From positions 177,680,312 through 177,744,082 of the forward strand of contig CM097886.1 in the NCBI GenBank assembly GCA_044892525.1: DNA of 63,771 nt, written 5' to 3'. This document shows, one piece after another, positions 1,089 to 27,300 of this stretch (positions are counted from its first letter, which is position 1; each line of letters starts with the position of its first letter). The notes under the pieces are model-generated. The model searched no databases and had not been told where the DNA came from. It was given only the letters and a program-made list of their open reading frames with translations. Both the position numbers and the translations under genes were made by a program. Origin of the DNA: Schmidtea polychroa (lineage: Eukaryota).

Positions 1089-1106
1089 TGGGGGCTCAGC
1101 CGGGAT
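1089..1106 (+). promoter_or_regulatory. Primer-binding site, tRNA-Pro type
   Basis: TGGGGGCTCAGCCGGGAT matches the classical tRNA-Pro PBS TGGGGGCTCGTCCGGGAT at 16/18; it lies 7 nt after the LTR end and is absent after the terminal LTR. Confidence 0.8.
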
Positions 1107-1423
1107 CTACAGTCGATTGAAATTTCTATTAACGAATGCGAAATTCACCGGGATTTTCATAAAAAATTAAAGGGATTTATCACATCGATTTTCTGTTTTC
1201 GACCGACCATTGCTTGACGAATGCAAATTGACTATTGATTATTAAATTATATCAGGAACCAAGTAGAGAAAATCAAAATGTAGATAATAGAAAAATTAAG
1301 GATATATATAAATAAAGGAGATAAAGTAGTCAAGTTAAATAATTAACAATGGTTAAAGAAACCAATTAACGAATTAACTATTAATTTACTACATATTATT
1401 AAAACATTACTTTTCCAACAGCT

Positions 1424-1909
1424 ATGACAGAATTCGCGAACCAAATGCAACAACTGCTCAAGTTTATCGATATAGAAAACGACTCCCTAACAACACTGAC
1501 GCATAAAAGAGAAAAAATCAACGCGATATTACTACAAGCAATCGGACAAACACCAGTCGTACCTAATCATATGATATTAGCCACAGGCCTAAGTCGCCCA
1601 GATGGAAAAATAAACCCCGAAACCGTATATCAGTGGTATCAAGAGAGATTGAACCACCCAACATTAAATCTAGATTATCAGCGTCTAAAAGACTCACTAA
1701 ATACAATACCAGATGCAATCGAACAAAAAATACAGGAAAAAGTTAACCAATTACGAACTTGTATAGCCTGCAAACTCCGTCCTATTCGCGTATTATTCTT
1801 ACCGTGTGGACACCTCAGTCACTGTGAAGAGTGTGTAAAAGACCTAAAAAGATGCACGATGTGCAAATATGAAATAAAAGAGACCCATATGGTCTATTAT
1901 GGCGAATGA
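1424..1909 (+). CDS. 161-aa protein with C-terminal IAP/Mdm2-type RING-HC finger (no BIR)
   Basis: CIAC...LFLPCGHLSHCEEC...CTMC followed by the terminal hydrophobic tail HMVYY; acceptor-like CTTTTCCAACAG|ctATG upstream; AATAAA at 2014. Confidence 0.85.
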   Translation: MTEFANQMQQLLKFIDIENDSLTTLTHKREKINAILLQAIGQTPVVPNHMILATGLSRPDGKINPETVYQWYQERLNHPTLNLDYQRLKDSLNTIPDAIEQKIQEKVNQLRTCIACKLRPIRVLFLPCGHLSHCEECVKDLKRCTMCKYEIKETHMVYYGE

Positions 1910-2505
1910 AACGGCCGGCGATGTAACAGCAAGTATACGATGTTTGAACAAGAATGCATGAAATTGTTGAAGTAACACGTACTGTTAATGATTCAATCTT
2001 TATGTTTATGATAAATAAATTCGTCTTTAAAAAGTTTTGATGATTAGGACTAATAAAATTTGCATGACGAATGAATATTTGCGTGTTTGTTTTGTTTTAT
2101 TCTTTTTCTTCGGAATCAAATGAAGAGAGGGTTGAATAACGTGGAATTAGTCCCAATATAGACTGCAGGGGTACAAACCGAGCCACCTTCGGGCGGTACG
2201 TCTTATTGCAAGAACCCGTTGGGAGGGGATAACTGATCAACCCAAGTAAGAAGCGTAGGGCGGGGTACCATCGCATATGATGAGAAGTTTTTGCGACATG
2301 ACTGATCACCATGCCAATGTAGAAATGGATCATCGCGATCGTCGTGCGTTTTGAGCAAGGGGGGAAAGGGGAAACACTCCCAAGCGGTAAAGATTAAGTC
2401 GACAAATTAAAAGTAGACAGAGAAAATGGTAAACTAGAGTAAAAGAAGAAAAGAGAAATAGAAGCATGCAGAGCGAGGAATATTGAAGCCGAGCTGTCGA
2501 ATAAT

Positions 2506-3224
2506 CCAGCCGGTCAAGGAGGAAGACTGAGCTGTTGAATAGTGCCAGCCAGTCGTAAGGTCGAGTTGTGAAAAGTCCAACCGATCAGGAAGGAGGAAGA
2601 TTGAGCTGTTGAATAGTGCCAGCCAGTCGTAAGGTCGAGTTGTGAAAAGTCCAACCGATCAAGAAGGAGGAAGATTGAGCTGTTGAATAGTGCCAGCCAG
2701 TCGTAAGATCGAGTTGTTGAATAGTCCAACCGATCAGAAGGAAGAAGATTGAGCTGTTGAATAGTGCCAGCCAGTCGTAAGGTCGGGTTGTGAAAAGTCC
2801 AACCGATCAAGAAGGAGGAAGATTGAGCTGTTGAATAGTGCCAGCCAGTCGTAAGGTCGAGTTGTGAAAAGTCCAACCGATCAAGAAGGAGGAAGATTGA
2901 GCTGTTGAATAGTGCCAGCCAGTCGTAAGATCGAGTTGTTGAATAGTCCAACCGATCAGAAGGAAGAAGATTGAGCTGTTGAATAGTGCCAGCCAGTCGT
3001 AAGGTCGGGTTGTGAAAAGTCCAACCGATCAGGAAGGAGGAAGATTGAGCTGTTGAATAGTGCCAGCCAGTCGTAAGGTCGAGTTGTGAAAAGTCCAACC
3101 GATCAGGAAGGAGGAAGATTGAGCTGTTGAATAGTGCCAGCCAGTCGTAAGATCGAGTTGTTGAATAGTCTAACCGATCAGAAGGAAGAAGATTGAGCTG
3201 TTGAATAGTGCCAGCCAGTCGTAA
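2506..3224. repeat. 74-bp tandem repeat, ~9.7 units, with 222-bp (3-unit) higher-order period, in the pre-gag leader
   Basis: GAGCTGTTGAATAGTGCC recurs at 2529, 2603, 2677, 2751, 2825, 2899, 2973, 3047, 3121 and 3195; the variant unit (GATCGAGTTGTTGAATAGTC) is every third unit. Confidence 0.95.
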
Positions 3225-4533
3225 AGGCCTAGAAAAGCGAGAGATAGCAGTTAAGCTACAATGAGATAATATTTAAAATTACTAGTGATACGGAATATTA
3301 AAGCTAGCTAGAACAAATTGAATGTAATTTTGAAAATTCGAGTTTAGAGAGGAAATAAACGAGCTCGTGGAAAAGAAAACAAGATTATAAGGAAAAAGGA
3401 AAGGGAAGAAGGAAACGAATTAAAGAGATAATAGAAAATAAAGAATAGATGAAACAATGATAATGAGTAAAGAGGAAAGTAACTAACTAATTAAAGGGAT
3501 CCCAGTGAAGTAGAGAAACTCTACGGAATTTTTTTTTTGGGTAAACCGGGAAAATGTATTTTTATCGGTTCCAGAGTAGAACCGAGTGGGATAATAGTAA
3601 ATACGAAAAGTAAAACAGCGACAACAGCGCAAAGGAATAAGAAAACGAAGGGGGGTAATAAGCAGAGACCGACAACGACCTATTTTTACTATAATTGATA
3701 ACGAATAGATAATTATTACGACTTTATAGATAATTGTTACTACCCCATATAGATAATTTAAAATCGACGGAAAATACGGGCTGATGGGATATTATAAACC
3801 GCAGACAGGATTTCACAAAAGATAGGGGAAGCACAAACAGAAACCTAAAAGGTGTCTGTTTTTGAATGTTGTAGAAAGAATGATGAAGTCGTGTAAGCAA
3901 ATGCAACACGAGATCATTTTTTCATTTTAGATATCAAGCCAATCCAGCCAACCAAGACAATCCAGAACCTGCACAAAAGGAATTCGAAGAAAATCGACAA
4001 TCAACCAAGGATAAATCCATTCAGAACCCGCACCGAGAGACACAGCAACCGGAAGACTCCAGAACGGAAGAAGTATTAGCAGCCATCTGCCAAGGATTAG
4101 TAAATCTCCTCAGGATCTCAGTAGCAGATTCATACAGAATATTTATCGAAGGAAACACAATCAGAACCGAACGCGTCCGATTCAATAGCCGCTAATTACC
4201 AAGAAGCGTAAGAAAGGAATCACGGATAAACCCAATCTTAGATCTTCTAGTAAGCCAGGAGACGTATTATTTTCAGGAGACGAATTACAACAACTCAAAA
4301 GAGGACGATCCATTAAACATCAAAGAGGAATATCACAAGGATCCAGAAGAACCAATCAAGTACCCATATTTGACCAAGAAAATCTCGGATATACCCCTAG
4401 TCGATCTCGAAGTAGAGAAAGTCTGTCCGATATCACTAATAGTTTAGCAACGTCAACCGAGGAATTATCAGCCCAAAGTTTAGTCACATCGTTAGACAAT
4501 TTAAAAGAAACAGACGAACCTAGAACACCAATC

Positions 4534-5439
4534 ATGACGAATGTCGTAAAAACCGACGAGTATAAAGAGAAGTTCAGAGGAGAACCGTTCAACGGAAATG
4601 CAAACAAGCTAGCAACGTTCATAACTAATTTTGAAGTTTATATCACTGTGTGTGGATGGACACCCGAAGCAATTAGTAAAAGGATGCCGTTGTTTTTGTG
4701 CGATAGTGCATTAGAGGTATATTTAGAAGCTAAAGAGAGAGACACGAAATTAGAAAAGTGGGAAGATATTAAAACATTCCTGAAGAAAACCTTCGGAGCC
4801 AGTAAGCCAATCAACCAGGCGTTGGGCGAACTAGCAAATAGGAAACAAAGAGCAAACGAATCGATAACATTATATGCCAGTGAATTGCGGAGATTAGCAA
4901 AGAAAGCAATGAATGGAAAATTACCCGAAGAAAATCTGATCGGTTATTTCATAGAGGGATTACGCCGAGAAGAAGTAAGAGCCTCAGTAGGTTGTCAAAT
5001 GTGCAAAACATTAGAGGAAGCCATAGATTGGGCTACAAGATGCGAGCTCCACCTTCCAGCTCAAATGAATATTATGCAAGAGGAGGGAAGGATAGCGACA
5101 GCAATAGCGAAAGCAGATAACGGAGATAACAACAATCAAGAACCGAAAATGAATCAATTTATACCAGGAGCGCACCAAATTTTCAAACCACCACAAGGAC
5201 GATCAAACGGGAATAATGGTAATCGTAACAACCCGAATAATGAGAACAATTTCAATAATCGGCGAAATATGAACGATAACAAGCAGTGCCGAACATGCGG
5301 TAAACCAGGACACTGGGACAGAGATTGTTATAGAAATTCAAATTGTAATCGTTGCGGACGGCGTGGACATACCGAAAATGTATGCCAATTGCGAGGCTGT
5401 TTTAACTGTGGTCAGCCAGGTCACATCTCCAGAGATTGC
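4534..5439 (+). other. gag: Gag: capsid-like domain plus three CX2CX4HX4C zinc knuckles (5287-5439)
   Basis: PFNG...W..IK..LKKTF...LANRKQRANESITLYASELRRLA...YFIEGL pattern; CRTCGKPGHWDRDC, CNRCGRRGHTENVC, CFNCGQPGHISRDC. Confidence 0.92.
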
Positions 5440-8400
5440 CGAGAAAGGGGCCAACAACAACGACCACCACAGCGAAATAATAATTATGTAGCGAATCCGC
5501 AACGACAAAGTAACCCTAACGAAGGAAAACAAATGAACGTTATGCAGGAAATTTCGCAGATGAAACAGATGATGCAGCAAATGATGAGACCAAGACAAGA
5601 ATCAGCACCACAACAAACCCAGAATATACGTATGATGAGGAGTACCGAAAATCTCAACAATTATGAAGTGCATCAACATGTACAAGAATGGCAAAGGCTA
5701 CAGGCCGAGGAAGAGAGGATAAAACAAGAACGCAACCAACAACGACAAGAACAACCATTGCGAATAAATATGATGAGGTTAGTAAAAGACATGAAGAGCC
5801 AGTATTGCTACAATTACGGGAAAAGCCCAAGGGTAGTACCCATGACTGAACCAGAAAAGGTAAAAGAAATAACAACGGAAATGAAAACAGAGAATTCAAC
5901 CACGATTTTAAAAGGAAACCAGAGAATTCAGAAAATATTCTGGAAAAAGATAAAGGATAAAATCGAAAAAGAACATAATAAAGCGAAAACCGAGACAGAA
6001 GATGAAAATAACAAGAGCAAGGAACAAACCAGTCAACTAAACCACCGAATGCTACAAGAATCAGAATCGGAAGAAACAACAATATTCGAAAGAAAGAAAC
6101 TAAAGAGAGTACCAAGGATGAGAAACTTGCAAATCAATATGATGAAAAGGACAAAAGATGTAGCATCATCAGACGAAGAAGAAGATTATGTAAGTAGTTT
6201 GGGTGGAGAAATACTACAGCCGAATGAAATAAGCGAACCCCCAAAAGGGGAAATCAAAGAGGAAGAAAGCGGAAACGAGATAACCAGTGAAAGTGAAGAC
6301 GAAGATATCGAAATAAAGTTGAGAAAAGCAAGGGAGGAAGCGATAAAACAGGTAGCCGAAATACTCCCAGTAGTAGTGAGGAACCAAGAGTTCATCGACG
6401 TAATATCATTCAGGCGATTCGTGCAAAAAGTGATGAAATTGGAAAGAAACGAGAAAGATCTAATACCAAACGAGGAAAAATCAATTATAAAAAATTATAT
6501 GGAAAAAATGAAGCAGGCCGATACCACGCGGTATGTAATAAAAATTGGAACGAGTAGAGGACTTGAAAGAATGTGGATAAAAAATACAGTCACCGACGAA
6601 CTTTTCGATTGGATACGAGAACATTTGGGAAGTTCGAGAAAGAAAGAATATCTGTATCAATACCAAGGAGAACAGATCAAACCAGATAAGCACTTAGTAG
6701 ATGCACTAATATGGCCAGGAGAAACGCAAATACTGAAGTTGCATAAAGAAAAACAACCAGCCAACCTTTACGATTGGGCTAAAGATGCCAAGGCAGAATA
6801 TGATTTTAATATCAAATTGAAATTAGAACAAATAAAACAATGTACTCTGAGACGAAACCTGGATAAGCTGATCAAACAAATTCAAGAACAAGTAGAAGAC
6901 AACTGGGATTTACTCATCACCAGACGAGCCCCAGCCATGTACGAACTAATGAGCCGGTTGCGAGATACAGAAATGCTCCGAATGAGTGATTGGAGAACCA
7001 TAAATTTGATCCACAAATATGGAAGGTTAAAAGAAACCCAGCCACAGAGGTTGGAAATAACCATATGGTTACCGAACGAAGAAAAACGACGAATAAAAAT
7101 GAGCAATCAGAGTACAGTGGATGACTTGGTATCAAAAATAAACCAAGAGATAACGGAAAAGGTACGTAGCGAAAGTAGTGATGGTATGGTGGATGATGTA
7201 GTCATGATGTACGATAAGATAATATTACGAGCGGAGGACGACACCTCGTTAAGCGAAATGGGTATGTGGGACAATCATCAGATAATCAGGATAGTACCAA
7301 TGGATGAATTCCGAACAAGAGATGTAACATATCAAAAAGAAATACGAGACCGGATGAAAACGTTATATCAAAAATCTACAGAAATAATTGAAATCCACCA
7401 ACAATGGTTAAAAGAAAAAGAGCTACAAGGAAAAATCACGAAATTAAATACCAGATCCTGCAGACGAACCCCATGGGAAAGAGTATGGAATGCAGAAAGT
7501 AAGGAATGGGAAATCCGGAAAGGAACCTTCGTAGAAACAGACATTGGTGAGACAGAAAGTGAATCGGAGGAAGAAGAAGAGGAACCTCCAGAATATGAAG
7601 AGGAAGCAAGGGAACAGACATCAGATGACGAAAGCGAGACGGATGTCACATCAGAAAGCGAAAATGAAGCGAGACATATTCATGCAATGAGGAAAAAGGA
7701 ACGTGAATATGCTGATATGGACGGCGAGGAAGCGGCGGAAGCAAGAGAACGAGAAGAGAAAGAAAGATATAAACAATTAGGCGATATTTTAGCAATGGGA
7801 GCGAAAAATCAAAAACGCCAGGTAGTAGCGTTGGCTAATATCATCTTAAAAACATCAGAGAATATCCACAATCTGAGAGGAATGGCAAAGGCAATAGAGG
7901 AATACCGGCAATATAATGAATGGTATCCAGAACAGCTAGAACAAATTATTCGAAAATGGAGAAATCAGGAATGGGCACAAGACACCCAGGAGAGGTATCA
8001 CATCCGAATCAAGTATCCGGACAAGAGCATCGAGGAACTAGAGGTGCATCCAACAACAAAAATTAGAGAATTAAAAAAGAAATTAGCATATGAAACTCCA
8101 TTCCATCTGCAACTGTTCGGAAAATCACTAGACGATAATGCAGACGTCGGGATAACACCCATGAGATTGGAAGAGACAAATGTATTAACAATGGCAGAAA
8201 CGTTGGGAAAACCGTTAAAAAGGAAAAGTAAAATTACTAAACCAACAAAAGGCAGTTTGAGTACTCCAAGTCCGAACAAAGCACCAAGTAAATCTAATGA
8301 AACTGAAGAAGTTGAAGAGATAATCCTGGAAGATAGTGACGATGAACCAGGAGAAAGATCACCGCTATTAGTGAGATGGCCGACAGGAGCCGAAATGTGG

Positions 8401-11400
8401 ACTAATAACCAGCCATCAACGAGTTATCAACAACCAACGAAACTGAACATCAAAGAAATCATCGACAATACTACGGAAACCGAAACGGATGAACAATTCC
8501 AGAAGCAAAGAGAACCAACGAAAGTAACACCAGAAAGTCAAACCGACAAAATAATAGACGAATGGAATGAGTGGCTAAGAAATAACGATAGCTCATTACC
8601 CAGAACGGATAACGAAAGAAATCCGAATTACGAAAATACCAGAGAAGCCGGAACGATGATGGAAAAACGGGCAAAAGGAAGACCTAAGAAACAAGGAGAA
8701 AAGTCTGAGTTAAAAACCAAAGAACAATTAAAGCAAGAACAAGGGCAAGTTCGATTAGAAAAATTGGATAAAATAGTATGGGATCTAAAGGAAGCCCAAC
8801 CAACGATCGAAAGAGGAGAAAAATGGATACGAGAATTGTTAAAAGATATATTAATAATAACAAACCCACAACTTAGACGTTTGTGGCAACGGAAAGTAGC
8901 CAGTACGGAAGCTAGACAATTATGGCACACCATTTCGGGGATAATCCCAAAGTTAATCAAAGAGAAAACGAAAACCACCAAAACGGATTGGGATGAAACA
9001 AAGAGAGTGATTGAGCAGCTCACGACGAATGCAAATGATGACGAACATCACCTAGTGGTAATCACGTATTTGATGTATAATTTGATGGGACTAGCCGCGA
9101 GGAAAATACCAAATAAACAATTTGCAAATCATGTGGAAATGACCGTTTCAATCATAGAGAATACTATTGAACCACATATTATTCGTGCAGGAGGATGGAA
9201 AAGACTGATACAAGCGCCACGGAAAAATGAGCAAGAAAGATCGATGCAAGTTAGATTGAAAAAATTGTTAAATGAACTAGAATGGGAACTACCGATGAAA
9301 GATCCCGCAAGCAGAAAAGCATCAATAAATTCGTTAATGATGACTATGATGATATGGATGTTGTGCACAAGTGGAGCAACAGGTTTTACCATCTACGATT
9401 GTGATAATATGATAATGAGAGATAAATACTCATTGAGAGACATAGAAGAATGCAGACAAGCCTCACCCAACAAATTGGACATCGTGAGAACAAAAGTTAC
9501 TTACCATGTATATCAAGAATCAGATTTCATCAGAACGCAAGCAAGGGAATGCGTAGTATCAAAAAAGGTACTCGCATATTACTGTGGACAATATTCGTAT
9601 TCGACTCTTATACTACCCGGTCTGGATAAGGAAATCGTATCAATACAACGAGAGGATTGTAAAGAGCTATTTAGAACCGGAGCGCTAAAAATGCATAACG
9701 GAGTGACAATTCACGGACAAACTGGAATGATTAAAACCGAAAGTGTTTACGTAGCCGGAAAAGTAAAATCATCAGATGGGTCATGTAACGGAGGTACGTA
9801 TACGATCCGAGGCGAGGTAATATCGGGAGTTGTAGTGATCGAGTCTTACACGGTCGAATTAAAAGAATACGAAGCGCAATTTGACGCAAATAATTACCAA
9901 ATGAAGACCAACCCAGCGTGTAAAGCTACAGAAAACGTATGCAGGACAGGAGTATCAACTATAATCTATGAAGCTAATACCCAAAAATGCCGACTCCAAC
10001 TGTTAAAAAGTGCTTTGTTCAATGAAGTAAAAGGAGAAATATATGAGAACGAGAACGACGAGGATGGAAACGACAGAGTGAGAATGCGAAATGGAAAACC
10101 AATGCCACCATCTCCCAGAGAAAAGAGACTTTCAACGCAGAAGACACCAACAGCATTAATCACAGACGATCCAGATCTAGGTATGAGGTTTATCAAAGAG
10201 AAAGAAACCACCAAATGTGACAGTATAGTATATAAAACCAATTACGCAGGCATCTATATGTCGAGACAAATAATCGATAGAGCAGTGGGAAAGATAGCAA
10301 CGGAGGACGTAAAACTATACTTATATGCAAATAATAAAATGGATTTTCTATTTCATCGTGGACAAACGACCTTGCAAAAAGTATATTACGATCTGATACA
10401 AAACGATTGTTCATTGAATAAAGAAATATTGAAAACAAAGCTAGCTATTGCGATAACGCACCCAGATAACACGATGCCATCACTCCCATTACCAGATGGA
10501 CACTTTGGTAGAATGGTAGGAGAAGTGATGTACACATACCAGTGTACCAAGACGTATGCACGAATGCCAGAAAAATCCATACTACCCGAAAAGAGATGTG
10601 CAAATGAATTAGAAATCCGTTATAAAGGACAAAATCGATTCGTCCAACCAGTCACTAGAATTATGAATCCAGTGGGTTTCTACCCAAATCTCTTTAACTG
10701 TTCTAATGCATACGGACCTTTATATGAAAGGCCCGATGGGAAATGGATGATGTTACCGGGAAAAACCATATCCGAGGAGCCCAAGAAATTTGGATTAATA
10801 GAACTCGCCACAGAGCTGGATTTCAAACCTATAGACGTGTCAAACGGTGGTATGTATTCCCCAGAAGATCTAGAAACAGCACGACTTAACGTACTCTTCC
10901 CAGCCAGACGAGAATCCATTTTGTCTAATATGGTTACAATAACTGGGGGCACAAATTATCAATCAGGCCCGAATTACGAGCTGCTATTATCGCCAGACCA
11001 TTTTCAACAAGCTACGTCAAACATGATGAAAGCAATGTGGGGAAGATTCTTAGTTTTTGGACAAATGATGGCCGGGATATTAGGGATCATACTCATAATT
11101 CAGATAGTCAGAGTAATACTAACACAAATGTTAGCTTGTTTCGATATATACAAGCGGGAAAAGAAAGTTAACTGGAAAATGATAGTAGGTTTCTTACCAT
11201 TTTTAGCTAAGACCATGGTATTACATGGCCACTCAAAAGACATCCATCGGATAAAGCGATTGATAAAAATATTAACAAAGATTAAAGGAACCGACGAAGA
11301 AGTAGGCAGACGATTCCGGAAAGTAATGTACGATGAAGCAACAAGACGACAATTGAAAAAGAATAAGCCAAAATTCTTGGACCGATTTAGAAGCCAATCA

Positions 11401-14400: not shown

Positions 14401-17400
14401 ATCGCAAAAATTTTGGTAGAAGAGATATGTTGCCGATATGGAACACCAAAACAAATCTTAACCGATCAGGGAACTAATTTTATGAGTGAGATAATGAGCG
14501 AAGTAACAAATTACTTCAAAATAGCAAAACTAAGAACATCTCCATACCACCCTCAAACCAATGGGATGACGGAAAGATTTAATGGAACACTTACACAAAT
14601 GTTATCAAACTACGTTGACCGTCACCAACGAGATTGGGACGAATATATAAACCTATGTCTTATGGCGTACAGAATGTCGATTCACGCATCAACGAAAATG
14701 AGCCCATTCAAATTAATGTACGGAAGAGAATGTAACATGCCAATGGACCTGGAATACCAACCACCGATATCGCAGTATATGGAGATCGATGATTATGTTA
14801 CGAAATTCAAGGAAAGAATGCAAGAAATTTGGGAAACTGCGGGATTAAATATCAAGTTCTACCAGGAAAGTTATAAAGATTTACACGATCGAAAGAAAAA
14901 CGTGAAGCAACATACGTTCCAAACAGGTGATTGGGTAATGATAGAAACCCCGGAATTAATTCCAGGAACCACAAAAAAGTTACAACGCAACGGAAAAGGA
15001 CCATATGAGATCTTATTCGTAGGCGAAACTAATGTAAGAGTGAAATTGGTAAATAACCCCTTTACCAGACCAATATACGTAAACGTGGCACGATGCAAAT
15101 CAATTCCAAAAACAGCCACTAGTCAACCAGAAGGCCGTACATTAACCACACGTTCGCAAACCTACCGAATGAACATGATGCAACAACTCGCAGAACCGAT
15201 CACTGGACGATTAGGTATCCAACCATCAGAAGCGGAAAAGATTGTAAAAGAGGTAAAAATTAAAATACCTGGATGGGCAAAAGATCGATTAGATTTCGAA
15301 ATATTAGGAGGATTATTGACGATGATCGAGAACTATGCAAATAGAGAAAGGACACACCCATTATTGCGAGTAGTCAAAAGCCAATGGCCAATATTATTTA
15401 CAATAACAGATCATTACGGAGACACACCATTACACAAACTCATGAAAGTAGGTAACAACGAGCAAATACTAGAAACAATAGAAGCATTTCACGACTGCAA
15501 GCGATCAACAGAACAAACAAACAACCAAGGTTACACACCATTAATGATAGCCGCAAACAAAGGCAAAACAAAAGACATTATAACCGCATTACTCGATACC
15601 GGATCGAAAATAACTACACAAGACCACGAGCGGAAAAACGCTCTACATCATGCTATCGAAGGGAGAAGTACCGAGGCGTTCACGTCATTGATGGAACTAC
15701 TATCATATGAGGACAATCGGGAAGTCGGAAACATGTATGATGGATTGTTAACAGCGATCAAAGAAAAACTGACGACAATTACCGGAATATTAATTACATG
15801 GAGAAATCCAATTCGAAACGATTATATGATCAACGTAAACGAAGCGTTCACGAGAGGAGAGAACACGCTGATGAGAGAAGCTATGAAAGGACATCAGTTA
15901 TTCGAAATCCCGAATCAATTACTAGAACGAGGGATAAAATTCACAAATCATAAAGACGAACAGTTAGCAAAAAAGCGAATCGACACATTCGAAAAATCCC
16001 TATTCCAATTTACTAACCAAGTACGAAATAAATATTGGGAAACGGTAAGTGTGTTATATATGATGGACACAATGAATAACATCCGCGAGAATTACCTGGA
16101 TATTATCCAAATACTTACAGCAGAGGAACGAATCAATAATCCAAACGGAAAGAAAACGAAAATAAGGTATGAGAAATCCAGGGAATCAAAGTCAACAACG
16201 AACCAAACGGTCACAAACAACGTCATCGAAACCAAATCAATGAGTATAGATCAAGAGGCAATAATACGCAAAGCAAAAGAAGTGTTCTTTGAGGAAATGC
16301 TAGAGCTGCCAGACGAAATAATATTGTCAAAAATAATAAAAGCCGTACACACATACGCAAGAGATCAAACCACGGATTTAGATATCGGGAAAATCAAAAC
16401 CTTCTTGCCTCGAGCATTTACGATGGTAACGAAGGATTCCAGAACACCCCTACAACAAGCAATACTAGCAGCGAAAGAAAATAGAGCAATAACGATCGTG
16501 AGAATCCTTGGAGAGATGGGCGAGGAAACCAACACGAAAAATGAACAAGGTGAAACCGCCATGATGTATGCAGCTATAACGAAAATACACCCAAAAACAC
16601 TCCACATCCTACATCAATCAGGATCGAAACTAGACGAAAAGTCCAATGAAGGAAATTCCACCTTGGACTGGGCAACCATACAGCCAAACTTAGAAATGAT
16701 CAGATTTATTTGCAAAAATGCGACAAAAGAAGAAGTCGAAAATATGTGCAAAAACACATCTCAGTTTCAATGGAATGCGGTACGGAAAAATCTAGAAGCA
16801 ATGAAATTATTATTAACCTGGAGAGTACCACAAAATAATAAATATGCGATAAATGTAAACGAATTCTACGAAAACGGAGAAAATGCGATGGTAAAGAATA
16901 CCCTAACTAAGGGGGGGACACCTAAAATAATTTTAATAGTATTAAATAGAGAAGACCTAAAATTCACGCAAAATCAGAACGAGCAACAACGAATTGGGAA
17001 ACATCGTCGTATGCAATTGAGAGAGTTAGTTAAAGAATGGAATAGAAAGAGACATGCTGCAACGGGTAGAAAAGAGTTTGAATTCGAAGCAAAATTAGCA
17101 AGAAACAGAGTGCTAACAGCATATCGCAGATTATTGAACGATATAAATGTCGAGGACGACATTTTAAACGACAGCGGGGGAGATAAACACGATGACAATA
17201 ACGGAAAAGGCCGAAAGGAGGATAAAGAGAAAAGAGAACAGGAGGAGGGTAAACCGGAAAACAAGGATTCGGATACGAAAAGAGAGGGAAACAGCCCGGG
17301 AACTAAGACCAAAGAGGAGGAAAAATCGAATAATGGAAAACAGAGGGTATGCCTACCTTTCACTAACAAAGAAATAGAGACAAATATGATATTAATGATA

Positions 17401-18387: not shown

Positions 18388-18547
18388 AAAGGAATATGAC
18401 TGTATATAATTGTAAAAAGTAAGTATATCTTATGTATATAACAGTACTATATCTTTATATAAGCGCGGTATCAATATTATACAATAACGGGAATCATAAA
18501 ATAAAATTAAATTTACATAAGAGCTGAAAAGTGTATATAAATTAGGA

Positions 18548-18907
18548 ATGGATCAAGGAAATAACGAAATGAACCACGATACAGTAACTGAAGAATTATG
18601 GAAGCAACAATGTGCCGTATTAGCACAATTAGTGTCCAATTTGCAAGAACAAGGACTGACGATGCACAGAAACCTGATCGAGAGTATGAACAGAGGATTT
18701 AGTTATTTGAAGATAATTGAAGACCAGAGGTTAAAAATCGAACAAATGCAAAGAGGGATAGAGAGGATAACCCAATATAGCCGTCGACAGGAAATTGAAA
18801 TAGACAGAATGATGGAGGAAGCAGAACAGACAGAAATAGAAGACTGGTCGGAATGGCTAATGAATAGAGAGGAGAGCGGACACGAAGCCGACTCTTCCGA
18901 ACCCTAA
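18548..18907 (+). CDS. 119-aa coiled-coil/acidic accessory protein
   Basis: Same strand and codon style as the element; AG|gaATG upstream; flanked by AT-rich spacers. Confidence 0.6.
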   Translation: MDQGNNEMNHDTVTEELWKQQCAVLAQLVSNLQEQGLTMHRNLIESMNRGFSYLKIIEDQRLKIEQMQRGIERITQYSRRQEIEIDRMMEEAEQTEIEDWSEWLMNREESGHEADSSEP

Positions 18908-18992
18908 ACCAAACCTAGCTCAAAATGTAAATAATTGTAAATAAAATATCGAACCTGTATCGATAAGAACTATTTGTACATATAATTATAGA

Positions 18993-20381
18993 ATGGATAA
19001 ACGACAAAGAGAAGAGTTCAGAGAGATTGTCGAGCAAGTCCGAAAATCTACAACGATCAGAATACACAAACATGTTATGTGCGGAATATGTGAAAAGTTG
19101 TTAAAGGAACCTCACCAAACGCAATGTGGATGCAGAGTATGTAAAGAATGTATCAGTGAAGCAATAAAGAATAGACCACAGAAGTGCCCGGTGTGTAAAG
19201 AGACACTAATATCGAGTTTAGAAGACACTAACGAGGATAAAGCCGCAGTGAAAGACGTGTTAAACACCAACCTGGGATGCAAAAATGCCCCATGCGAATG
19301 GAAAGGAGTAATATGGAAGGTAGTACAACATATGGGAGAATGTATGTACCGAATTGGCCAGTGTGAAAGGTGCCATAAAACCATTCGAGCAAGCGAAGAA
19401 AAAGAGCATCAAAGGCAGTGTGAAGAGAGATTGGAAAGATGTGAACACTGTGGAGAAATAGATACGTGGATAAATCTCACCCTCAAACATCACAATGTCC
19501 AAGAGGAGAGAGTATGTGCGGAGTTCAGTGGGGAATGCCCAAACGGATGTAACCAAGGGGAAATAATGAAGGTGGCACAGCATCTAAGGGAATGCGAAAA
19601 GAAAAGAATGACATGTGTACTAGGTAGATGGGGTTGTCAGAAATTACTACACCGAGGTGAGTTACCACATCATTTAGTAGAAAATGCTTCAACTCACGCA
19701 GAAATGTGGTCGACTGCGTTACAAGAAAGCGAAGAGAAAGTAAAACAAATGGAGATAGAGATAACATCGTTGAAAGTGTTAGTCAAAGAACTACTAGAAG
19801 AAAGGGAAGCGTTCGAAGAAGCCCGAGCAAACATAAAGATGCAAATAAACCGAACAGAAATTAGTAATAATCAGGCCAAGGAGCTACATCAGAAAATACG
19901 GGAAATAAATCTAAATGAGATAACCCCAACAGCACCCTACATATGGAAAATAACGGGAGTAAAAGAAAGAATACGAAAAGCAAAAACCGGAGAAGAGACA
20001 AGAATAACAAGTCCTACATTCCATTCTTGGAAAAATGGGTACAAAATGAAAATGAAGATATATCCCAACGGGGACGGAACCGGATTAGATACGCACTTTT
20101 CGATTTTCTTTCTGTTATGTAAAGGAGAATACGACGAAATATTAGAATGGCCGTTCCAGGCAAAAATCGATATTACTCTGATGAACAACCGAAGTATACA
20201 TGAGCAAAGCTTCAAAACAACGGGGAATCAAATAGCTTACCAGAGGCCCCTCAACGAAGAAGGATCAGCAACAGGAGCACCTACGTTCATCTCACAACAA
20301 AGAGTAGAAGATATGGCGAGAAATGATACCATATATATCAAGATGACCGTGAGGAAAGAGGAGAAGGGTAGAACGGAGTAA
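18993..20381 (+). CDS. TRAF-family protein (RING - zinc fingers - coiled coil - MATH), intronless
   Basis: RING CGIC..LLKEP.QTQCGCRVCKEC..CPVC; TRAF zinc fingers; MATH YIWKI..SPTF..GYKM..YPNGDG.G..TH.S.F..L.KGEYD.IL.WPF. Confidence 0.95.
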   Translation: MDKRQREEFREIVEQVRKSTTIRIHKHVMCGICEKLLKEPHQTQCGCRVCKECISEAIKNRPQKCPVCKETLISSLEDTNEDKAAVKDVLNTNLGCKNAPCEWKGVIWKVVQHMGECMYRIGQCERCHKTIRASEEKEHQRQCEERLERCEHCGEIDTWINLTLKHHNVQEERVCAEFSGECPNGCNQGEIMKVAQHLRECEKKRMTCVLGRWGCQKLLHRGELPHHLVENASTHAEMWSTALQESEEKVKQMEIEITSLKVLVKELLEEREAFEEARANIKMQINRTEISNNQAKELHQKIREINLNEITPTAPYIWKITGVKERIRKAKTGEETRITSPTFHSWKNGYKMKMKIYPNGDGTGLDTHFSIFFLLCKGEYDEILEWPFQAKIDITLMNNRSIHEQSFKTTGNQIAYQRPLNEEGSATGAPTFISQQRVEDMARNDTIYIKMTVRKEEKGRTE

Positions 20382-20574
20382 CCAATCGAATAATGTTGTA
20401 TATAATAATCTGTATATATCGGTGTATATAACCAATAAAATATTATATAATAATAGTATGAAAACCATAAATACGAAAACCCAAAAATGATGCGAAAATT
20501 TCCCAAGAAACAGTAAATAATGAATAAATTCCTTTTTCATAATAAAAAGATTAATCGATGTCTATGATTTAGAG

Positions 20575-21630
20575 ATGACACAAGAGAAAATAACCGAAAC
20601 TGCGATAGCCCCAACCAATGTCAACAAGACACAAATTCCCCGAGAACATAACAAAAAATGGAACAAAGTAATGTTCCAACTAACTAATCTCACCCGAAAT
20701 CACATCGAAGAAACTAGAGAAGATGAGAATAGTCAATACCAATGGTTAATACACAACTTAAGAGCGGAAGCAGAAGCATGCAAAAGAGCATCAAAATGGG
20801 CGTCACTAGAAAATACCCGCCAAGAAGCACACAGCCACTACTTAAAGCAGCTAGTGCAGGAAGCGAGAAAGAGACTTACCGATGAGAACACCAAGCGCGA
20901 AGCGGAAAAACAAATAGAAGACAGGAAAATGATGCACTTAGTGGCAGAAGCGAGGAAATGGAAAAGACAAAACAGAGAAATGAAAAAAGAGATGAAAGAA
21001 TTGCCCATGAGACTCGGATATGAAAGCGAACAAGGTAAATGGGAGGAGAATTTAATAATAAAGGAAGAATTGAAAAGGTTGAGAAAGGTCGCCGCCCGAA
21101 GCCAAACCTGGCAAACAAAGGCTATGGAGTTTGAGCGACATTTGGCAATGAAGTGCGACATAAGAGAGCACGAGAATGCCGCAATGGAAGAGATGATAAC
21201 CCAACAAGCGGGACGGGTTGTGGAATTAGTAAATCAGGTAGAAGAGATGAAAAGAGACCTTAATGGATTACAAGGATCGCTGGAACAAAGAAACATGGTC
21301 CTAGCGGGAAAAAACAGAAAATTAGAAAACGAAAGGAAAATGTACACCGAAAATATTAAAAACTTAGAAATAGAAATTGAAAAATGGAAGGGCGACGAGA
21401 AAATCAAGGCCCTAGACAAACAGATAGAGGCGCAAGATGAAGAGACAAGGTATCTCACCTATCTGCTCGACGAGGAATTGAATATCACTCGAGCTCTAAG
21501 AGACGAAGTTAGTGAATTGAGAGCTCAAATTCCCCAATATTACCTACCATACGACCCTATTGCGATACAGTTACATTCCGCGGTCGATAGTGATGAAGGT
21601 TATGTAGGCCAGGAGGAAACCTTCGTATGA
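20575..21630 (+). CDS. 351-aa long coiled-coil accessory protein
   Basis: E/K/R-rich heptad pattern; TTTAG|agATG upstream. Confidence 0.75.
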   Translation: MTQEKITETAIAPTNVNKTQIPREHNKKWNKVMFQLTNLTRNHIEETREDENSQYQWLIHNLRAEAEACKRASKWASLENTRQEAHSHYLKQLVQEARKRLTDENTKREAEKQIEDRKMMHLVAEARKWKRQNREMKKEMKELPMRLGYESEQGKWEENLIIKEELKRLRKVAARSQTWQTKAMEFERHLAMKCDIREHENAAMEEMITQQAGRVVELVNQVEEMKRDLNGLQGSLEQRNMVLAGKNRKLENERKMYTENIKNLEIEIEKWKGDEKIKALDKQIEAQDEETRYLTYLLDEELNITRALRDEVSELRAQIPQYYLPYDPIAIQLHSAVDSDEGYVGQEETFV

Positions 21631-21798
21631 GGGTGGATGAAAAAATGAAAAACTAAAAACCGGGACGTATATCCCAAACAAAAAAATTAAAGTATTGTAA
21701 AAGTATTCAAGGGACTGTAACCCAAACTATTAAATTTTATATCAATGTATACGTATAAGTCGCACTATAGCGCACCATTAACTGTACATATTATAGAT

Positions 21799-22497
21799 AT
21801 GAAAATCGAGGAAATGATAGAAATTATGAGCGACGTAGAAGAGGGAGAGATTGAGGCAGAAACAACAGAAACACAAACGCTAAAGGCCGAGTTACGGGAA
21901 GAGAAATACGAAAACGGGAGATTAATAAACAAATACCTGGAGGACCGGAAAATGATAAAGGTGTTAAAGAAAGAGTGCGAAGCGTTGGGGGAAATAAAAA
22001 GAGAAACGGAAGAGGAAAATGAATGGCTACACGAACAAAGGAAGCGAGGGAAAAACTGGGAAAAGATAGCGGAAGAGCTATGGAAAGAGAGGGCAAGCTT
22101 CAAAGCAAAGGAGGTAATCCAAGACTACTGGAAAACTGAGGCGAAGGAGCGCCAAACAGCTATAAATAAATTAAAACGACAACTAGAAGAAAACCAACGG
22201 GAAAGTAAAGAAATGAGGAAGTGGGTCCGCAAATATAGAGAAATAGAAAGAAAACATCAACAACAAAATTACCTGCAAGAAAACGAACAAGATCTCCTAC
22301 AAATCGAGCTAAAAAGAAACCTTGAAAAGAAAAGGGAAGAAATTAGACGCTTGGAAAAAGAAATTAGACATCTAAAGAGAGAAGCCCGTGAAAAAGACCG
22401 ACAATTGGAAATGCTGCCCGAGTTAAGACACAGGGTAATTAAAGCAGAGTCCACCTTGATGAGAATCGGTGAAAATAATCCAAATCAGAACCATTAA
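21799..22497 (+). CDS. ~232-aa coiled-coil accessory protein (likely start 21799, not 21745)
   Basis: The charged helical sequence starts at MKIEEM, preceded by TTATAG|at; the 18 upstream codons look like AT-rich spacer. Confidence 0.7.
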   Translation: MKIEEMIEIMSDVEEGEIEAETTETQTLKAELREEKYENGRLINKYLEDRKMIKVLKKECEALGEIKRETEEENEWLHEQRKRGKNWEKIAEELWKERASFKAKEVIQDYWKTEAKERQTAINKLKRQLEENQRESKEMRKWVRKYREIERKHQQQNYLQENEQDLLQIELKRNLEKKREEIRRLEKEIRHLKREAREKDRQLEMLPELRHRVIKAESTLMRIGENNPNQNH

Positions 22498-22552
22498 ATT
22501 AAGGGTCATTAAAACCAATTGTAAATAAACATAATGAATGTATAATAGTATC

Positions 22553-23206
22553 ATGCGAGGCGAGATGATGATAACAATGATGGTATTGATGATTCTGATG
22601 GAGAACAAACAATTAAACGCCCAACCGAAAATCGTACGAGATTACCGCAATCAAAATCAAGAACCTAAACAAGAATCCGGCAAATGCACATACCCTATGA
22701 CCGTAAAAACCCATATCATCCAAACCATTCAATCAACCCGATCCCACATCAACAACATCCAAACAATGTGTAAAAAGAACCCCATTTGTAAAATGATAAA
22801 CAAACAAATCTTCGAACAAAGCCAACAGATCGACCAGTTGGAACAACAAATGCAACAAGAGGATTTTGAAAATCTTGTAGAAAAGCCAAAAACACCTCCC
22901 GAGATCAATGACACCCATTATCTCATATATGTGGTGATCGCAGAGACCCTCCTCCTATGTCTACCAATATTCATGAAAATTTACGAAATTCGAAATAGAT
23001 GTAGAGTCTCGACATCAATAAGAGTAACCTCGAACCAAAATCCTCAAGAAGTGCCCCTGACAAATCTTAACCCAACCCCATTCCGACCTCGAACCCCGAG
23101 TAATCAACCAATCCAGCCGAAATCTAATAGTCAGACCTATCTCAACATCAATACCCAAACCAACCAACAGCCGCCAGCAGAAGCATCAATGGTTAACAGT
23201 TCATAA
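22553..23206 (+). CDS. ~217-aa type-I membrane protein (signal, small Cys/helical ectodomain, TM, P/N/Q-rich tail)
   Basis: Signal MMITMMVLMILM..NA|Q; TM YLIYVVIAETLLLCLPIFM; ATAATAG|tatcATG at 22553; AATAAA at 23313. Confidence 0.7.
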   Translation: MRGEMMITMMVLMILMENKQLNAQPKIVRDYRNQNQEPKQESGKCTYPMTVKTHIIQTIQSTRSHINNIQTMCKKNPICKMINKQIFEQSQQIDQLEQQMQQEDFENLVEKPKTPPEINDTHYLIYVVIAETLLLCLPIFMKIYEIRNRCRVSTSIRVTSNQNPQEVPLTNLNPTPFRPRTPSNQPIQPKSNSQTYLNINTQTNQQPPAEASMVNSS

Positions 23207-23768
23207 ACTCTAACTCAAACATTTGTGTTATTATATGTGGAAACTTTTATTGTATGTACAAACTATCACCTTAAGTGATACTTGCTTGATCTTGCTTTGA
23301 CCTAGATCTTACAATAAAAATTTTATCATTGTTGTATAATTTTCGTGTTCGTGTTATATTTTTTTTTGAATGAATGAATTAAGTTAATTATGCAATTGCG
23401 GGACGCAATTTTGATGGGTCCCCGAGTGATTTGTTGGGCTGAGTCGAAAATTTAATCGTTGAAAAATAGGAAAGTAGGGAAGTAGAACATTAAGAAAAAT
23501 AATAATAAAATAAATAAAATCAGAAATAAAATAGAATAAGATATAAGGAAAATAATAATTAAGACATAAGAATTAAAACAAAAAATAAAATTAAGAAAAG
23601 ATTAAAATAGAACAAGTTGACAAATAAATAAAGAGGAATTCAAGAAATAATAAGGAAATTAAGGAAATAAATAGAAAAACATATTAAAAATAAAGAAAAT
23701 AAGGAAAAAACAACCTAAAAACAAGAAAATTATATTAAATTAATAGAAATAAGCGGTACTCAACTCTG

Positions 23769-23856
23769 ATTGGTCCGCACAAATAAGAATTTGATATATA
23801 TACAACTACCAAAAACATTAAATTTACTGTTAACCCCGAGCATTTCATAGGTAAGA
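23769..23856 (+). promoter_or_regulatory. Candidate Pol II promoter and first splice donor (also +26212)
   Basis: ATTGG (reverse CCAAT) at 23769, TATATATA at 23795-23802, then AG|GTAAGA at 23850/23851, downstream of a ~300-bp A-rich tract. Confidence 0.45.
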
Positions 23857-26006
23857 AAAATGTTTACTGTTACTGTTAACCCCGAGCATTTCATAGGATC
23901 GACACTACTAGCCAAGCAACCGTCATTCAGAAAACTCCACGACTATTCAAAACCAGTTCAGAGACCGAAATACCATTCATCACAATCATCGACATCCAAC
24001 GGACCACCATTAGAACTATTTTGGAACGAACAACATTGAATTTTGACTCAGCCTAACAATAGTAAGGGGTATTTCATTTGTTTATAGATTTATTTAAGTA
24101 TTTGCAAAGCTAATAGTAATGTTAAATATTAACGATTAAATATTTTAGTTAACTCTCTTCATTTGATTCTCCATTTTAATAACTTTAACGTATTGATGGA
24201 ATTTGTATTATTTAAGTATTTCAGAATTAATAAAATATTTTTATCCAGATGTCCGTATTTTATTTGAATTAAAGATTTTATAAATTTTCATTTAACGAGT
24301 AACGTGGAGTTGAGATACTCCATGTCATGGTATGAGGTGCCTTCGGGAGCTCAGCCGGTGGACATGGAGTATTTCAATCACGCAGCTAGATTGGGCCGAA
24401 ATGTGAAGGCTTCTTCACGGGTCCTATCGCTGAAGATGCGACTAAATTATCACAAGGGGTCATGGTTAAAAGAATCGCTGGCAGACAATGATTTTCACAG
24501 AGATAGTCGTACGAATGAAGGGATTTTCAAGGATTTACACAGTGACTGAGGGCGTCGCATTCCTTTTTCTTTCGTCAAGTCGTTTTCGTAAATCTTACCC
24601 CTATTGAAAAATGAGATCCAGACAACGATTTAGTGAACTTCGTCAAAAATAACGACATCTCATAGTACGCTTCATCTGGAAACATGGTTTCATCAAGTTA
24701 ATTGCGACAACGTCTATTTGCCGGACTCAGTAGAACTAATTTCGTATGAAATTCCGTTATCATAGACCCAATGTCATCTAGCCTGTCCAGATTGTATGTC
24801 AGGTTACGAAAGTATCCTAAAAACTTTAACTAACTCGAACCTGAAAAATGCGAGATTCTACGAAAACCTCTCTAATATTATAATCAGAAAGTTTTTATAG
24901 ACTTAGCTATTTAAAAATTATAAACGGTAAAATATCACCAAATTTAATTAATAACATTTATTTCTACAATAAGAGCCAGGTCTTCACTGTATACATCCAA
25001 ATTATTGAACCTGAGAGAAAATTTCGAATGGCTAAGGGCAGGTTTCATCGAGACGGCATTACATCTGAATAGGAAAATCCGAGTAGAATGACGAGAGTAG
25101 TAATATGCTTCAGTATTTGGTAGCATTATTCCCTCGACGATCACTGAAAAGATCCAATAAATTTCCAAACGATGGTGATCATTCACACAAGTTGATAAGG
25201 GTAAAATTCCGCGATGAGAACTGACGGCAGCATAAATCATGATTCAAATAAATCACTGTGCAGAGAAAATCATATGACAGCAGGATCGATGAAATCACCG
25301 TGAAAATGGCATACACCAAGTGAGTGAGATAAGATAGTAGCCATACACGAATCTATGTGGTGAGAGCACAGAATATCAGACTAGCATACATAATAGTCGC
25401 GACACGTGACATTCACAATAGGTCGATAATGTAATCAACTAGTCGACAGTAGTATCCGTAAATTTGGACATGTGTTATGACCGATGAGATATCCCATTAG
25501 GGTGTTCAAGTAATGGCTGATGTAAACTCATCACATATTCTCAGACAAATGGTAGACAATATAGATAATCACATTCACTACCGAATTAAAAGTGCACTTC
25601 CAATAACAAATTTCGAATCAAAAAATATGTTGAGAATAGCGATAGTAATTTGTTTTTAATAAATTTAAATAGATAATTTATAGCAAGGTGTAGTCGCATA
25701 CTATAATGTCCCTCTACTAAAGCATTATTATATTGTTTCACCAATATTATATTTACCCCCTATTAATTATTACGCCCCTCATGTATACGGTTAGATCAAT
25801 AGAGAGTCAAAGTTAATAGCATGCGTCAAACCGATGGCCTTTGGTTAAATAAATTGTTTCAACAAATAAGATCCGTGGTAAAACCGGATTGTAGAATAAG
25901 TTTTCCTTCTTTTCGTCGGTCAAGCATCCACGAATGGCCGTAGGTCGTATCTAATTTATTCTAAAATCGTACGTTCTACGTTTCATTAGTATTATTTATA
26001 GCAAGC

Positions 26007-26759
26007 ATGCTACCAACCACTAAATCAGCATTACGGCCGTGCTTCTCGTGCGCGGATAAAAATACGGTGATAAAGGACCTACAAACTCAGATTGGACGTT
26101 ACAAGAGGAAGATAGACGAGCTGGAGGGGACATGGTTTAGTCCCGCTCGGATGAAAGAGATCCAAAAGAAGCTCGATCGTAGCGAGCATTGCCGGGACGC
26201 GCTAATATCTGAAAGCCGTGCCCAAAGAAGTCTAATCAGAGAACAATCCGAGGCACTGCATAAGGTTTACGTGCAGGCGGCTACAACCCGAAAAATAGTG
26301 CAGATTCCCATCCGAGAGGCCGATGACATCTTTCCGCCTCATCACAACCTTTCCTCGAATCCATCTCCACCGTTCAAGAGACCGTGCCGAGACTGCGTCG
26401 AAACCGAATTGTCCCCCAAGCGACCAGATGTTGTCATCACGGGCACCAGTAAGCCCCCCACTGCTAGTCCATCCGTATCAGTCACCCTTCTGCAAGTGGC
26501 ATCTTCAAGCAAACCCAAGCGAAAACAACTCTCTCGTGCAGAGCGCAAGAAGAGACAGCGCGAGCGCGCTACTACAAAGCCAAACATCCCAGCAATGGAG
26601 GACTCAACCAACGGTGGCAACTCTCACGTGTCCATCGACCTAACAACGGGACCCTCGGCACGAATCATATCAGCCGCTGGCGTAATGTGGGAAGAGAACG
26701 CTTCCGAGTTTTTCAACCTCGACGAATTATTCGCCGACGCTGAATGGGAGAAACAATAA
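26007..26759 (+). CDS. 250-aa protein, probably within the LTR: CxxC + coiled coil, basic NLS-like tract, acidic/aromatic C-terminus
   Basis: CFSC; KPKRKQLSRAERKKRQRER; EFFNLDELFADAEWEKQ; TTTATAG|caagcATG upstream. Confidence 0.7.
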   Translation: MLPTTKSALRPCFSCADKNTVIKDLQTQIGRYKRKIDELEGTWFSPARMKEIQKKLDRSEHCRDALISESRAQRSLIREQSEALHKVYVQAATTRKIVQIPIREADDIFPPHHNLSSNPSPPFKRPCRDCVETELSPKRPDVVITGTSKPPTASPSVSVTLLQVASSSKPKRKQLSRAERKKRQRERATTKPNIPAMEDSTNGGNSHVSIDLTTGPSARIISAAGVMWEENASEFFNLDELFADAEWEKQ

Positions 26760-27300
26760 AATCCCAGTGGCGGTCAGGATGAGGAACAAGGATCCGATCT
26801 ATGTTGATTACGATGTTTTCTCTTCTTTCGATAAACGTTAGTAAAGTGTACAGCTGAATCCTTGTGTCATAACCTTGAAATTAATAAATCTTGTTGTCTT
26901 ACACGTCTTCGTTCATGAATAATTAGACTTTAATTAAGTGGGTCGAGTAGAGAACCCGCAAGATCTAGTGAGAAATTCCCAATTTGCATTCAGCGAATCC
27001 CGATAAGCGGTTGTGTAAGGAAATGGACGTAAGCCCTTCTATCGGCAGTCGTGAATGGGAAGTCGAGGCCTCAGCAAGGAGTAGTTTTAAGGCAGAAGCT
27101 CACCTGCTTGCTGGCGTCTCGCCTGCATAGTGCAGTACCAACGTGAAGTGATTCACGGGCACTATGTTGGAAGAAAGTTATGTGGGGTTTCACTCCAGGT
27201 TGACAAATCGGTGGCACCTTTTATTCGAGATGGACAATCAACCCTTAGACCCGTCAACATGGTAGAGTGGTCAGCCGAGGTGTAACCCCAACATGATTTT

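Follow-up and report, generated by a model that had tools for sequence, protein, structure and literature searches.

A giant long terminal repeat (LTR) retrotransposon of the planarian Schmidtea polychroa carries, within its LTR, a putative TATA-linked first exon of 28 nt with a splice donor, and an acceptor-type AG in front of each of its open reading frames (ORFs). By architecture and domain order the element is of a known kind, a Burro-like Gypsy element. It lies on the forward strand of a 63,771-nt window, i.e. the whole stretch of DNA analysed here (assembly GCA_044892525.1, contig CM097886.1, positions 177,680,312 to 177,744,082), of which bases 1-53505 form two head-to-tail units of 26,212 bp each, with 100% identity over 27,293 bp. 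The signals themselves, their conservation and the exon-1 copy that closes the leader intron are directly observed. We propose, with a probability of roughly 55%, that each ORF is expressed by cis-splicing of the common LTR leader to a chosen acceptor, yielding mRNAs mostly with nested 3' ends. The more specific combination of a packaged genome spliced inside R, an intron rebuilt in each cycle, a donor feeding eight ORFs including Gag-Env-Pol over distances of up to 25 kb, and Pumilio sites in every 3' spacer that would link the cargo to a translational regulator of the host is tentative, and we rate it slightly below even odds.

The best evidence for donor use appears to be a duplication in the leader (Table 1). 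A donor in the LTR (AG|GTAAGA, GT at 23851) had been guessed in a preliminary description of this DNA; it is present, is kept across subfamilies and is backed by the footprint of the duplicated exon. Leaders collected from the genome (137 records, 92 distinct segments) comprise 74 with two exon copies, 14 with a single copy, and 4 diverged or interrupted forms. Two-copy leaders have an intron of 44-53 nt, a TATA-to-donor distance of 54-57 nt in 72/74 cases, and a GTAAG or GTAAA donor in 74/74 (GTR being part of the search definition). Over 22 nt the two exon copies match perfectly in 71/74, while the 30 exon types involved differ strongly from one another. Among 31 window-type LTRs, the 14 nt preceding the core occur in 2 variants at copy 1 and in 9 variants at copy 2, and there is a mild excess of G at the junction 5' of copy 2 (14/48 vs 7.6 expected, p=0.014). 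Subtypes that are 98-100% identical in U3 and through copy 2 drop to 75-79% identity immediately 3' of it in 4 of 5 pairs, the fifth pair being at 95%. An exon-1 copy at the end of the intron is the trace that would be expected of reverse-transcribed, spliced genomic RNA: given the strong-stop and first strand transfer steps that PMC12789967 outlines as standard in retroviral reverse transcription, a cDNA ending in exon 1 would replace the tail of the intron, and the footprint therefore points to a spliced genome. The donor at 23851 thus looks to be in use. Transcription starting at copy 2, and a plain tandem duplication of the leader, were both rejected because neither accounts for the concerted change of the two copies or for the position of the variable junction. 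In other LTRs, starts of exon 2 that recur further downstream follow an AG in 7/11 classes, five of which represent one related event, so that this count carries little weight. Leaders L045, L178, L184, L197, L226 and L230 show 4-7-nt tandem repeats of the exon 3' end right after the leader copy, perhaps by slippage during strand transfer.

The preliminary description had placed a 3' splice acceptor directly before every accessory start codon, and the seven AG|n-ATG contexts are indeed found where it located them, with first exonic bases at 1422, 18546, 18992, 20573, 21797, 22549 and 26002. The comparison with internal ATGs that it called for gives a YAG within 5 nt at 7/7 chosen starts, as against 98/594 of the remaining ATGs in the unit (binomial p=3e-6). 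The universality of the pattern is weaker when only first ATGs are taken and gag is included (5/8, p=0.004), or when the site of the 119-aa ORF is also discounted (4/8, p=0.03): the starts chosen at 21799 and 22553 have their acceptor contexts but are preceded by ATGs at 21745 and 22538. The first ATG after each acceptor is the ORF's own in 9/9 cases. Without processing, the ORFs would lie 2.2-24.9 kb and 42-580 ATGs from the start site. On the gag side, no ATG occurs in the window between either acceptor (ending at 3930 and 4276) and 4534. Donor-like GTAAG words, kept in 5-7 of 7 copies, are found 38 and 27 nt 5' of these acceptors (3893-3930, 4250-4276); such spans are too short or borderline as introns, and no genomic copy devoid of them was found. 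The gag frame is also open for 85 codons 5' of ATG 4534 (window 4198-4533), with 27/22/48 variable sites by codon position, and contains an in-frame ACG at 4222, in purine/G context, in the copies viewed. The open frame with its third-position-biased change and this ACG together suggest an N-terminally extended Gag made from a non-AUG start.

Family-wide comparison covered 56 cassettes, down to about 68% nucleotide identity, with distinct 30-nt upstream variants as the unit of counting. A YAG lies at most 6 nt from the ATG in 14/15 variants of the TRAF ORF (the single miss being apparently mis-mapped), 24/24 of the 351-aa ORF, 19/19 of the 250-aa ORF and 23/24 of the 222-aa ORF. For the LTR ORF it lies within 10 nt in 20/20 upstream variants (background 178/604), and for the RING ORF exactly 2 nt 5' of the ATG in 8/8; these last two acceptors mostly stand behind pyrimidine tracts, despite otherwise unrelated upstream sequence. 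In a reduced set of 30 cassettes (6/56 dropped as incomplete, then 20/50 as redundant at 97%), the AG of the acceptors ending at 18991, 20572, 21796 and 22548 is kept in 29/29, 29/29, 29/29 and 28/29 of the other rows, respectively, so that 3/4 YAG acceptors but only 2/24 other spacer AGs have a fully kept AG (Fisher p=0.011). Among copies, AG and ATG lie anywhere from 0 to 10 nt apart, and the acceptor stays while the sequence upstream turns over; for both reasons a Kozak effect is disfavoured. In a gag-only family, some 430 nt of ATG-free sequence separate an upstream T-rich acceptor from the start codon (5 copies viewed), and in L240, a distant ankyrin-bearing relative from a metagenome (reverse transcriptase, RT, 56%), a YAG is found 0-1 nt before 2/3 downstream ORFs (background 39/286). 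This Gypsy relative (L240, 7283-11518) encodes an RNase T-type exonuclease in one of its three downstream ORFs.

The strongest signal in the 3' spacers, absent from the preliminary description, is the word TGTA[ACT]ATA (TGTAHATA). The unit's sense strand has 11 such words, every one in the five 3' spacers and 0 elsewhere (shuffle control: mean 0.24, maximum 3 in 2000), and the 30 cassettes each have 8-12 occurrences in spacers and 0-2 in coding parts; degeneracy at position 5 is not clearly above that at other positions. We take TGTAHATA (UGUAHAUA in RNA) to be the Pumilio consensus. A host PUF gene encodes a protein with the canonical residues of the eight repeats. A role of UGUA as a generic CFIm 3'-end signal is disfavoured, since planarian poly(A) sites are reported without upstream UGUA, as far as PMC5068929 describes them. 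Also within these spacers, GTAAGT at 18419 is kept in 29/30 copies; it could act as a U1 site that suppresses cleavage at 18500, or it could serve an internal promoter. Conserved short palindromes with CTGTA/CTATA-like loops occur at 21660-21775 (spacer 4) and 18946-18963 (spacer 2).

Poly(A) signals had been described after most ORFs. Six of the seven AATAAA hexamers are at the positions given and the remaining one is at 18500 instead of 18502, but strong downstream elements follow only 2052, 23313 and 26883. The T fraction downstream is 0.60 at 23313 and 0.58 at 2052, compared to 0.18-0.36 at the internal spacer sites (53 AATAAA in the unit). The seven AATAAA in six spacers are not clearly above chance (shuffle mean 3.7, p=0.07), the hexamer being present in 339/1008 non-coding windows of 130 nt; those at 18500 and 22524 are found in 15/30 copies each at aligned columns. 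In a distant subfamily the pre-LTR spacer, which holds the 23313 site, has ATTAAA instead. The 23313 site is likely to be the common 3' end of the cassette mRNAs, and messages would end mainly at three sites, i.e. in the LTR, after the RING ORF and before the 3' LTR, instead of behind each ORF. Of the earlier interpretation, the acceptors and the common LTR leader with its donor gain support, whereas poly(A) addition behind every ORF is weakly supported.

In the mechanism we envisage, transcription would start at about 23823. The packaged genome would be spliced only across the 46-nt mini-intron, and its minus-strand strong-stop cDNA, ending in the exon-1 copy, would overwrite the 3' end of the intron at the first strand transfer, so that intron and donor would be renewed in each cycle. 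Other transcripts would skip this acceptor in favour of those at 26002, 1422, 3931/4277 (for Gag-Env-Pol) and the five 3' acceptors, and the TGTAHATA clusters would be candidate Pumilio sites acting on the element's mRNAs.

Several observations weigh against this proposal. The competing acceptor lies 46 nt from the donor, and the 3' acceptors 21-25 kb away. The TAG|GA context described for the 119-aa ORF is present in the window but is a minority form in the family: AG is found in 21/21 upstream variants, YAG (as TAG) in just 4/21, and the other 17/21 have AAG. Pyrimidine tracts are poor at the acceptors of the 119-aa and 222-aa ORFs (0.35; median of non-coding YAG 0.45). Two ORFs have a conserved in-frame ATG 5' of the acceptor, kept in 29/30 (21745) and 26/30 (22538) non-redundant copies and both in frame and open in 23/30 and 26/30, respectively; these two ATGs lie within conserved TGTA words. 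The spacers are conserved throughout, with 20.7% of dinucleotides invariant, and 8/24 other spacer AGs are kept in at least 28/29 rows (p=0.024 vs acceptors). Moreover, the copies are kin rather than independent events, so that all such counts overstate independence. AATAAA is conserved at 18940 (27/30) and 20523 (26/30), making internal polyadenylation possible. The single-copy leaders (14/92), which were counted in favour of splicing, could equally have arisen by repeat-mediated deletion.

Furthermore, a leader-to-ORF junction was seen neither in sequencing contigs nor in genomic copies. Four contig sets of uncertain kind were compared over 17300-23490, a span without the leader; six joints were found, none of them a sense-strand GT..AG intron (24 of 207 loose ends listed). 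One joint (18860 to 18992) does reach the TRAF acceptor, but it starts with TG and comes from a single contig of a run whose kind is uncertain. A contig start at 18546 was rejected as splice evidence, being explained by a variant base at 18545. Among genomic fossils, the window-type leader followed by C or T gave 0/70 matches, and the leader followed by A plus non-C gave 1 exact match among 283, a 4-nt duplication. Junction patterns for the donor-like sites at 18419, 3893 and 4250 gave 0 genomic matches, in a search without positive control, and a pattern joining distant leaders to the LTR ORF gave 2 matches vs 1 in the control, both outside element context. The breakpoints of two internally deleted copies are not at predicted splice sites. 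Most leader-to-ORF RNAs would leave no genomic fossil because the primer site is lost; a leader-to-LTR-ORF RNA would keep it, and the two leader types tested yielded no such fossil.

An alternative built on spliced-leader (SL) trans-splicing, which we regard as unlikely but, with no junction observed, as a real rival, would have the LTR-proximal ORFs cis-spliced and the five 3' ORFs resolved as a flatworm operon, by poly(A) cleavage in each spacer and trans-splicing at the next AG. The spacers are on the same strand and measure 55-193 nt, with AATAAA 19-46 nt before the AG in spacers 1, 2, 3 and 5. This resembles flatworm operon candidates, for which the spacer limit is set at 300 nt and, in Macrostomum, the peak lies near 100 nt; in flatworms the acceptors of SL and cis-splicing are often the same (both as outlined in PMC12582326 and PMC8629364); SL trans-splicing is reported in Schmidtea itself in the account of PMC10899757. 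However, the internal AATAAA lack the U-rich downstream tracts seen at 2052 and 23313, spacer 4 has no AATAAA in the window, and the element owns an ATG-free leader with a donor. As for the reading frame, flatworm SLs typically end in AUG, yet among AG-ATG gaps 0/7 in the window and 5/18 gap classes of the family are multiples of 3, a pattern without frame selection, which is weak evidence against trans-splicing.

It is quite improbable that the 3' cassette has an internal promoter in the manner of foamy viruses, for which PMC7828637 mentions one, whether with TATATAG at 18381 and a second leader donor in GTAAGT (18419), or with TATA-like words in each spacer. The conservation of GTAAGT and the TATA-like word 38 nt upstream of it would agree with such a promoter. 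Its exon would nevertheless be only about 9 nt long, vs the 54-57 nt separating TATA and donor in the LTR; the motif also takes the forms TGTAAATA and TGTACATA, neither of them a TATA box; TATA-like words beside acceptors are too near the ATG; 7 ATGs precede the AG in spacer 3; and no genomic copy with the 18419 donor joined near an ATG was found. A synonymous-site scan, itself uninformative, gave no internal-promoter signal. That the AGs reflect mere translation-start context or general spacer conservation, with re-initiation or internal ribosome entry giving access to ORFs on long RNAs, would suit spacers that are AT-rich and conserved as a whole and AGs that in several cases give a purine at -3, but is hardly probable given the shifting AG-ATG distance, a YAG form kept through T/C exchange, the T-rich tracts at the LTR, RING and gag sites, and the splicing footprint in the leader.

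Cis-splicing from the LTR leader would operate in an element of 30074 bp (LTR 3862, internal part 22350, LTR). The 4-bp target duplication GAAT bounds the entire tandem array, and the pair sharing an LTR either arose by tandem duplication very recently or was duplicated in the assembly. We take the primer-binding-site-like stretch to be a candidate for tRNA-Pro. Within the polyprotein, Env corresponds to a mononegavirus-like fusion protein (PF24664, E=7e-71) in frame between gag and pol, the ankyrin repeats to PF12796, and two matches under the cut-off to PF00452 (BCL2-like, E=0.033) and PF00240 (ubiquitin-like, E=0.003). No BIR match was found in the 8 ORFs scanned, the 161-aa ORF having a RING only. 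The first 17 nt of the pre-LTR motif match exactly 668 times in the genome, and the best 150 of 1510 candidate relatives of the TRAF MATH region are 82-100% identical. Among the matches listed, no Burro sequence came up and the best RT relatives reach 56-61%; a search of IMG/VR returned no relatives of the element, Rfam gave 0 matches in 1-28000, and no tRNA genes were found.

Table 1. Features of the element in the window; TGTAHATA denotes TGTA[ACT]ATA, and fractions refer to copies retaining the feature.
Feature	Positions	Strand	Remarks
Primer-binding-site-like stretch	1089..1106	+	directly 3' of LTR; from sequence
RING ORF and acceptor	1399..1909	+	161 aa (1424-1909); AG ends 1421; PF13920
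AATAAA 2014 and 2052	2014..2110	+	U/GU-rich tract follows 2052
Acceptor 5' of gag	3915..3930	+	T-rich, conserved in 7/7 copies; no ATG up to 4534
Second acceptor 5' of gag	4261..4276	+	7/7 copies; preceded by donor-like GTAAG at 4250
Polyprotein	4534..18387	+	4617 aa; Gag-(Ub/Bcl2-like, weak)-Env-protease (PR)-RT-RNase H (RH)-integrase (IN)-Ank
Spacer 1	18388..18547	+	TGTAHATA 18401, 18433, 18532; GTAAGT 18419; AATAAA 18500; TAG ends 18545 (family AAG)
119-aa ORF	18548..18907	+	no Pfam match
Spacer 2	18908..18992	+	TGTAHATA 18926, 18936, 18975; AATAAA 18940 (27/30); acceptor ends 18991 (29/29)
TRAF-like ORF	18993..20381	+	462 aa; RING, MATH; PF21355/PF22486
Spacer 3	20382..20574	+	TGTAHATA 20397, 20411, 20423; AATAAA 20434, 20523, 20541; acceptor ends 20572 (29/29)
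351-aa ORF	20575..21630	+	coiled-coil-like by eye; no Pfam match over cut-off
Spacer 4	21631..21798	+	hairpin-like short palindromes; TGTAHATA 21783; acceptor ends 21796 (29/29); in-frame ATG 21745
ORF	21799..22497	+	232 aa from 21799; 250 aa from 21745
Spacer 5	22498..22552	+	TGTAHATA 22520 overlaps AATAAA 22524; acceptor ends 22548 (28/29); in-frame ATG 22538
ORF	22553..23206	+	217 aa from 22553; 222 aa from 22538
AATAAA before LTR	23313..23375	+	T-richest downstream tract of 53 in unit; AATAAA in this spacer in 24/30 copies
Pre-LTR motif	23394..23431	+	conserved; common to a gag-only family
LTR	23432..27293	+	3862 bp, TGTTGGG...CCCCAACA; identical copies end at 1081 and 53505
Promoter-like words	23769..23802	+	reverse CCAAT (ATTGG, 23769), TATA (23795); putative activity
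Leader exon 1	23823..23850	+	about 28 nt, no ATG, ends CATAG; start presumed from beginning of duplication
Mini-intron	23851..23896	+	46 nt, GT..AG; last 27 nt (23870-23896) copy exon 1
LTR-internal ORF and acceptor	25979..26759	+	250 aa (26007-26759); AG ends 26001
AATAAA, likely LTR poly(A) signal	26883..26888	+	downstream T 0.40, rank 4 of 53

Other features of the window and its relatives include about 9.6 copies of a 74-bp unit, without Rfam match, arrayed at 2490-3224 between the RING ORF and gag, and a Tc1/mariner-type element at 62330-63771 with 70-bp inverted repeats and a 403-aa DDE_3 ORF. A frequent family of about 12-13 kb (L084 3219-5501 and similar loci) shares the pre-LTR motif and the primer site of the element. 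It has one Gag-like ORF of 760 aa, what is left of the 119-aa ORF, a leader without exon duplication, and no pol in the stretches examined; this gag-only family is likely non-autonomous.

A single round of reverse transcription should remove any intron from the packaged RNA of a retroelement, and a donor-bearing intron rewritten in each cycle would, if true, be a way round this rule. Burro elements are abundant in planarian genomes, so that expression and dosage of the RING and TRAF cargo matter; one Burro element is reported to support stem cells via an anti-apoptotic gene, according to the summary of PMC13465017. Burro RNA levels go up after smedwi-2 RNAi, as described in PMC8532177. The present analysis supplies exact candidate junctions, 3' ends and Pumilio-type sites.

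A literature search yielded no description of such an expression scheme; the primary Burro papers (Grohme 2018; Lee et al. 2026), which may describe transcripts, and supplements were outside its scope. Burro/GYPSM1 elements, giant Gypsy-like elements of dugesiid planarians outlined in PMC6431247, share with the present element a size of about 30 kb, multi-kb LTRs, tandem repeats and accessory ORFs. In the same outline they also have a single huge ORF (about 4,900-5,100 aa, vs 4617 aa here) with Gag, CCHC knuckles and PR-RT-RH-IN in Gypsy order, an in-frame mononegavirus-like Env between gag and pol, and ankyrin and MATH/TRAF cargo. The BCL2-like and ubiquitin-like motifs of Burro/GYPSM1 may have counterparts in the two matches under the cut-off given above, and the outline is silent on the expression of accessory ORFs. 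Unlike in that outline, TRAF/MATH is here a separate ORF 3' of the polyprotein, and no BIR domain was found: Burro1 is reported to have a B-IAP gene (BIR plus RING), whereas the 161-aa ORF has the RING only. Flatworm SL operons, as sketched in PMC12582326 and PMC8629364, likewise have same-strand genes whose spacers stay below 300 nt, with every downstream gene preceded by an acceptor. They differ in that the leader with its donor is here encoded by the element. The adenovirus major late unit, with one leader, many distant acceptors and nested 3'-coterminal families, offers an analogy only, being that of a DNA virus with a tripartite leader. Complex retroviruses, above all foamy viruses, in the overviews of PMC7828637 and PMC12789967, resemble the element in having an LTR leader, a major donor serving several acceptors and small non-coding first exons, as well as a replication polyprotein made from a spliced mRNA. 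In those overviews retroviral genomic RNA is unspliced and R measures 15-250 nt, whereas here the genome is apparently spliced inside R and the intron rebuilt, and about 3.5 kb of LTR lie 3' of the start and encode an ORF. Finally, Cer1 of C. elegans, to judge from PMC10309623, is an LTR retrotransposon whose accessory protein, CERV, comes from a spliced mRNA and whose acceptors are conserved; it has one multi-exon accessory gene and an unspliced genome, in contrast to the seven ORFs found here, each behind an acceptor of its own.

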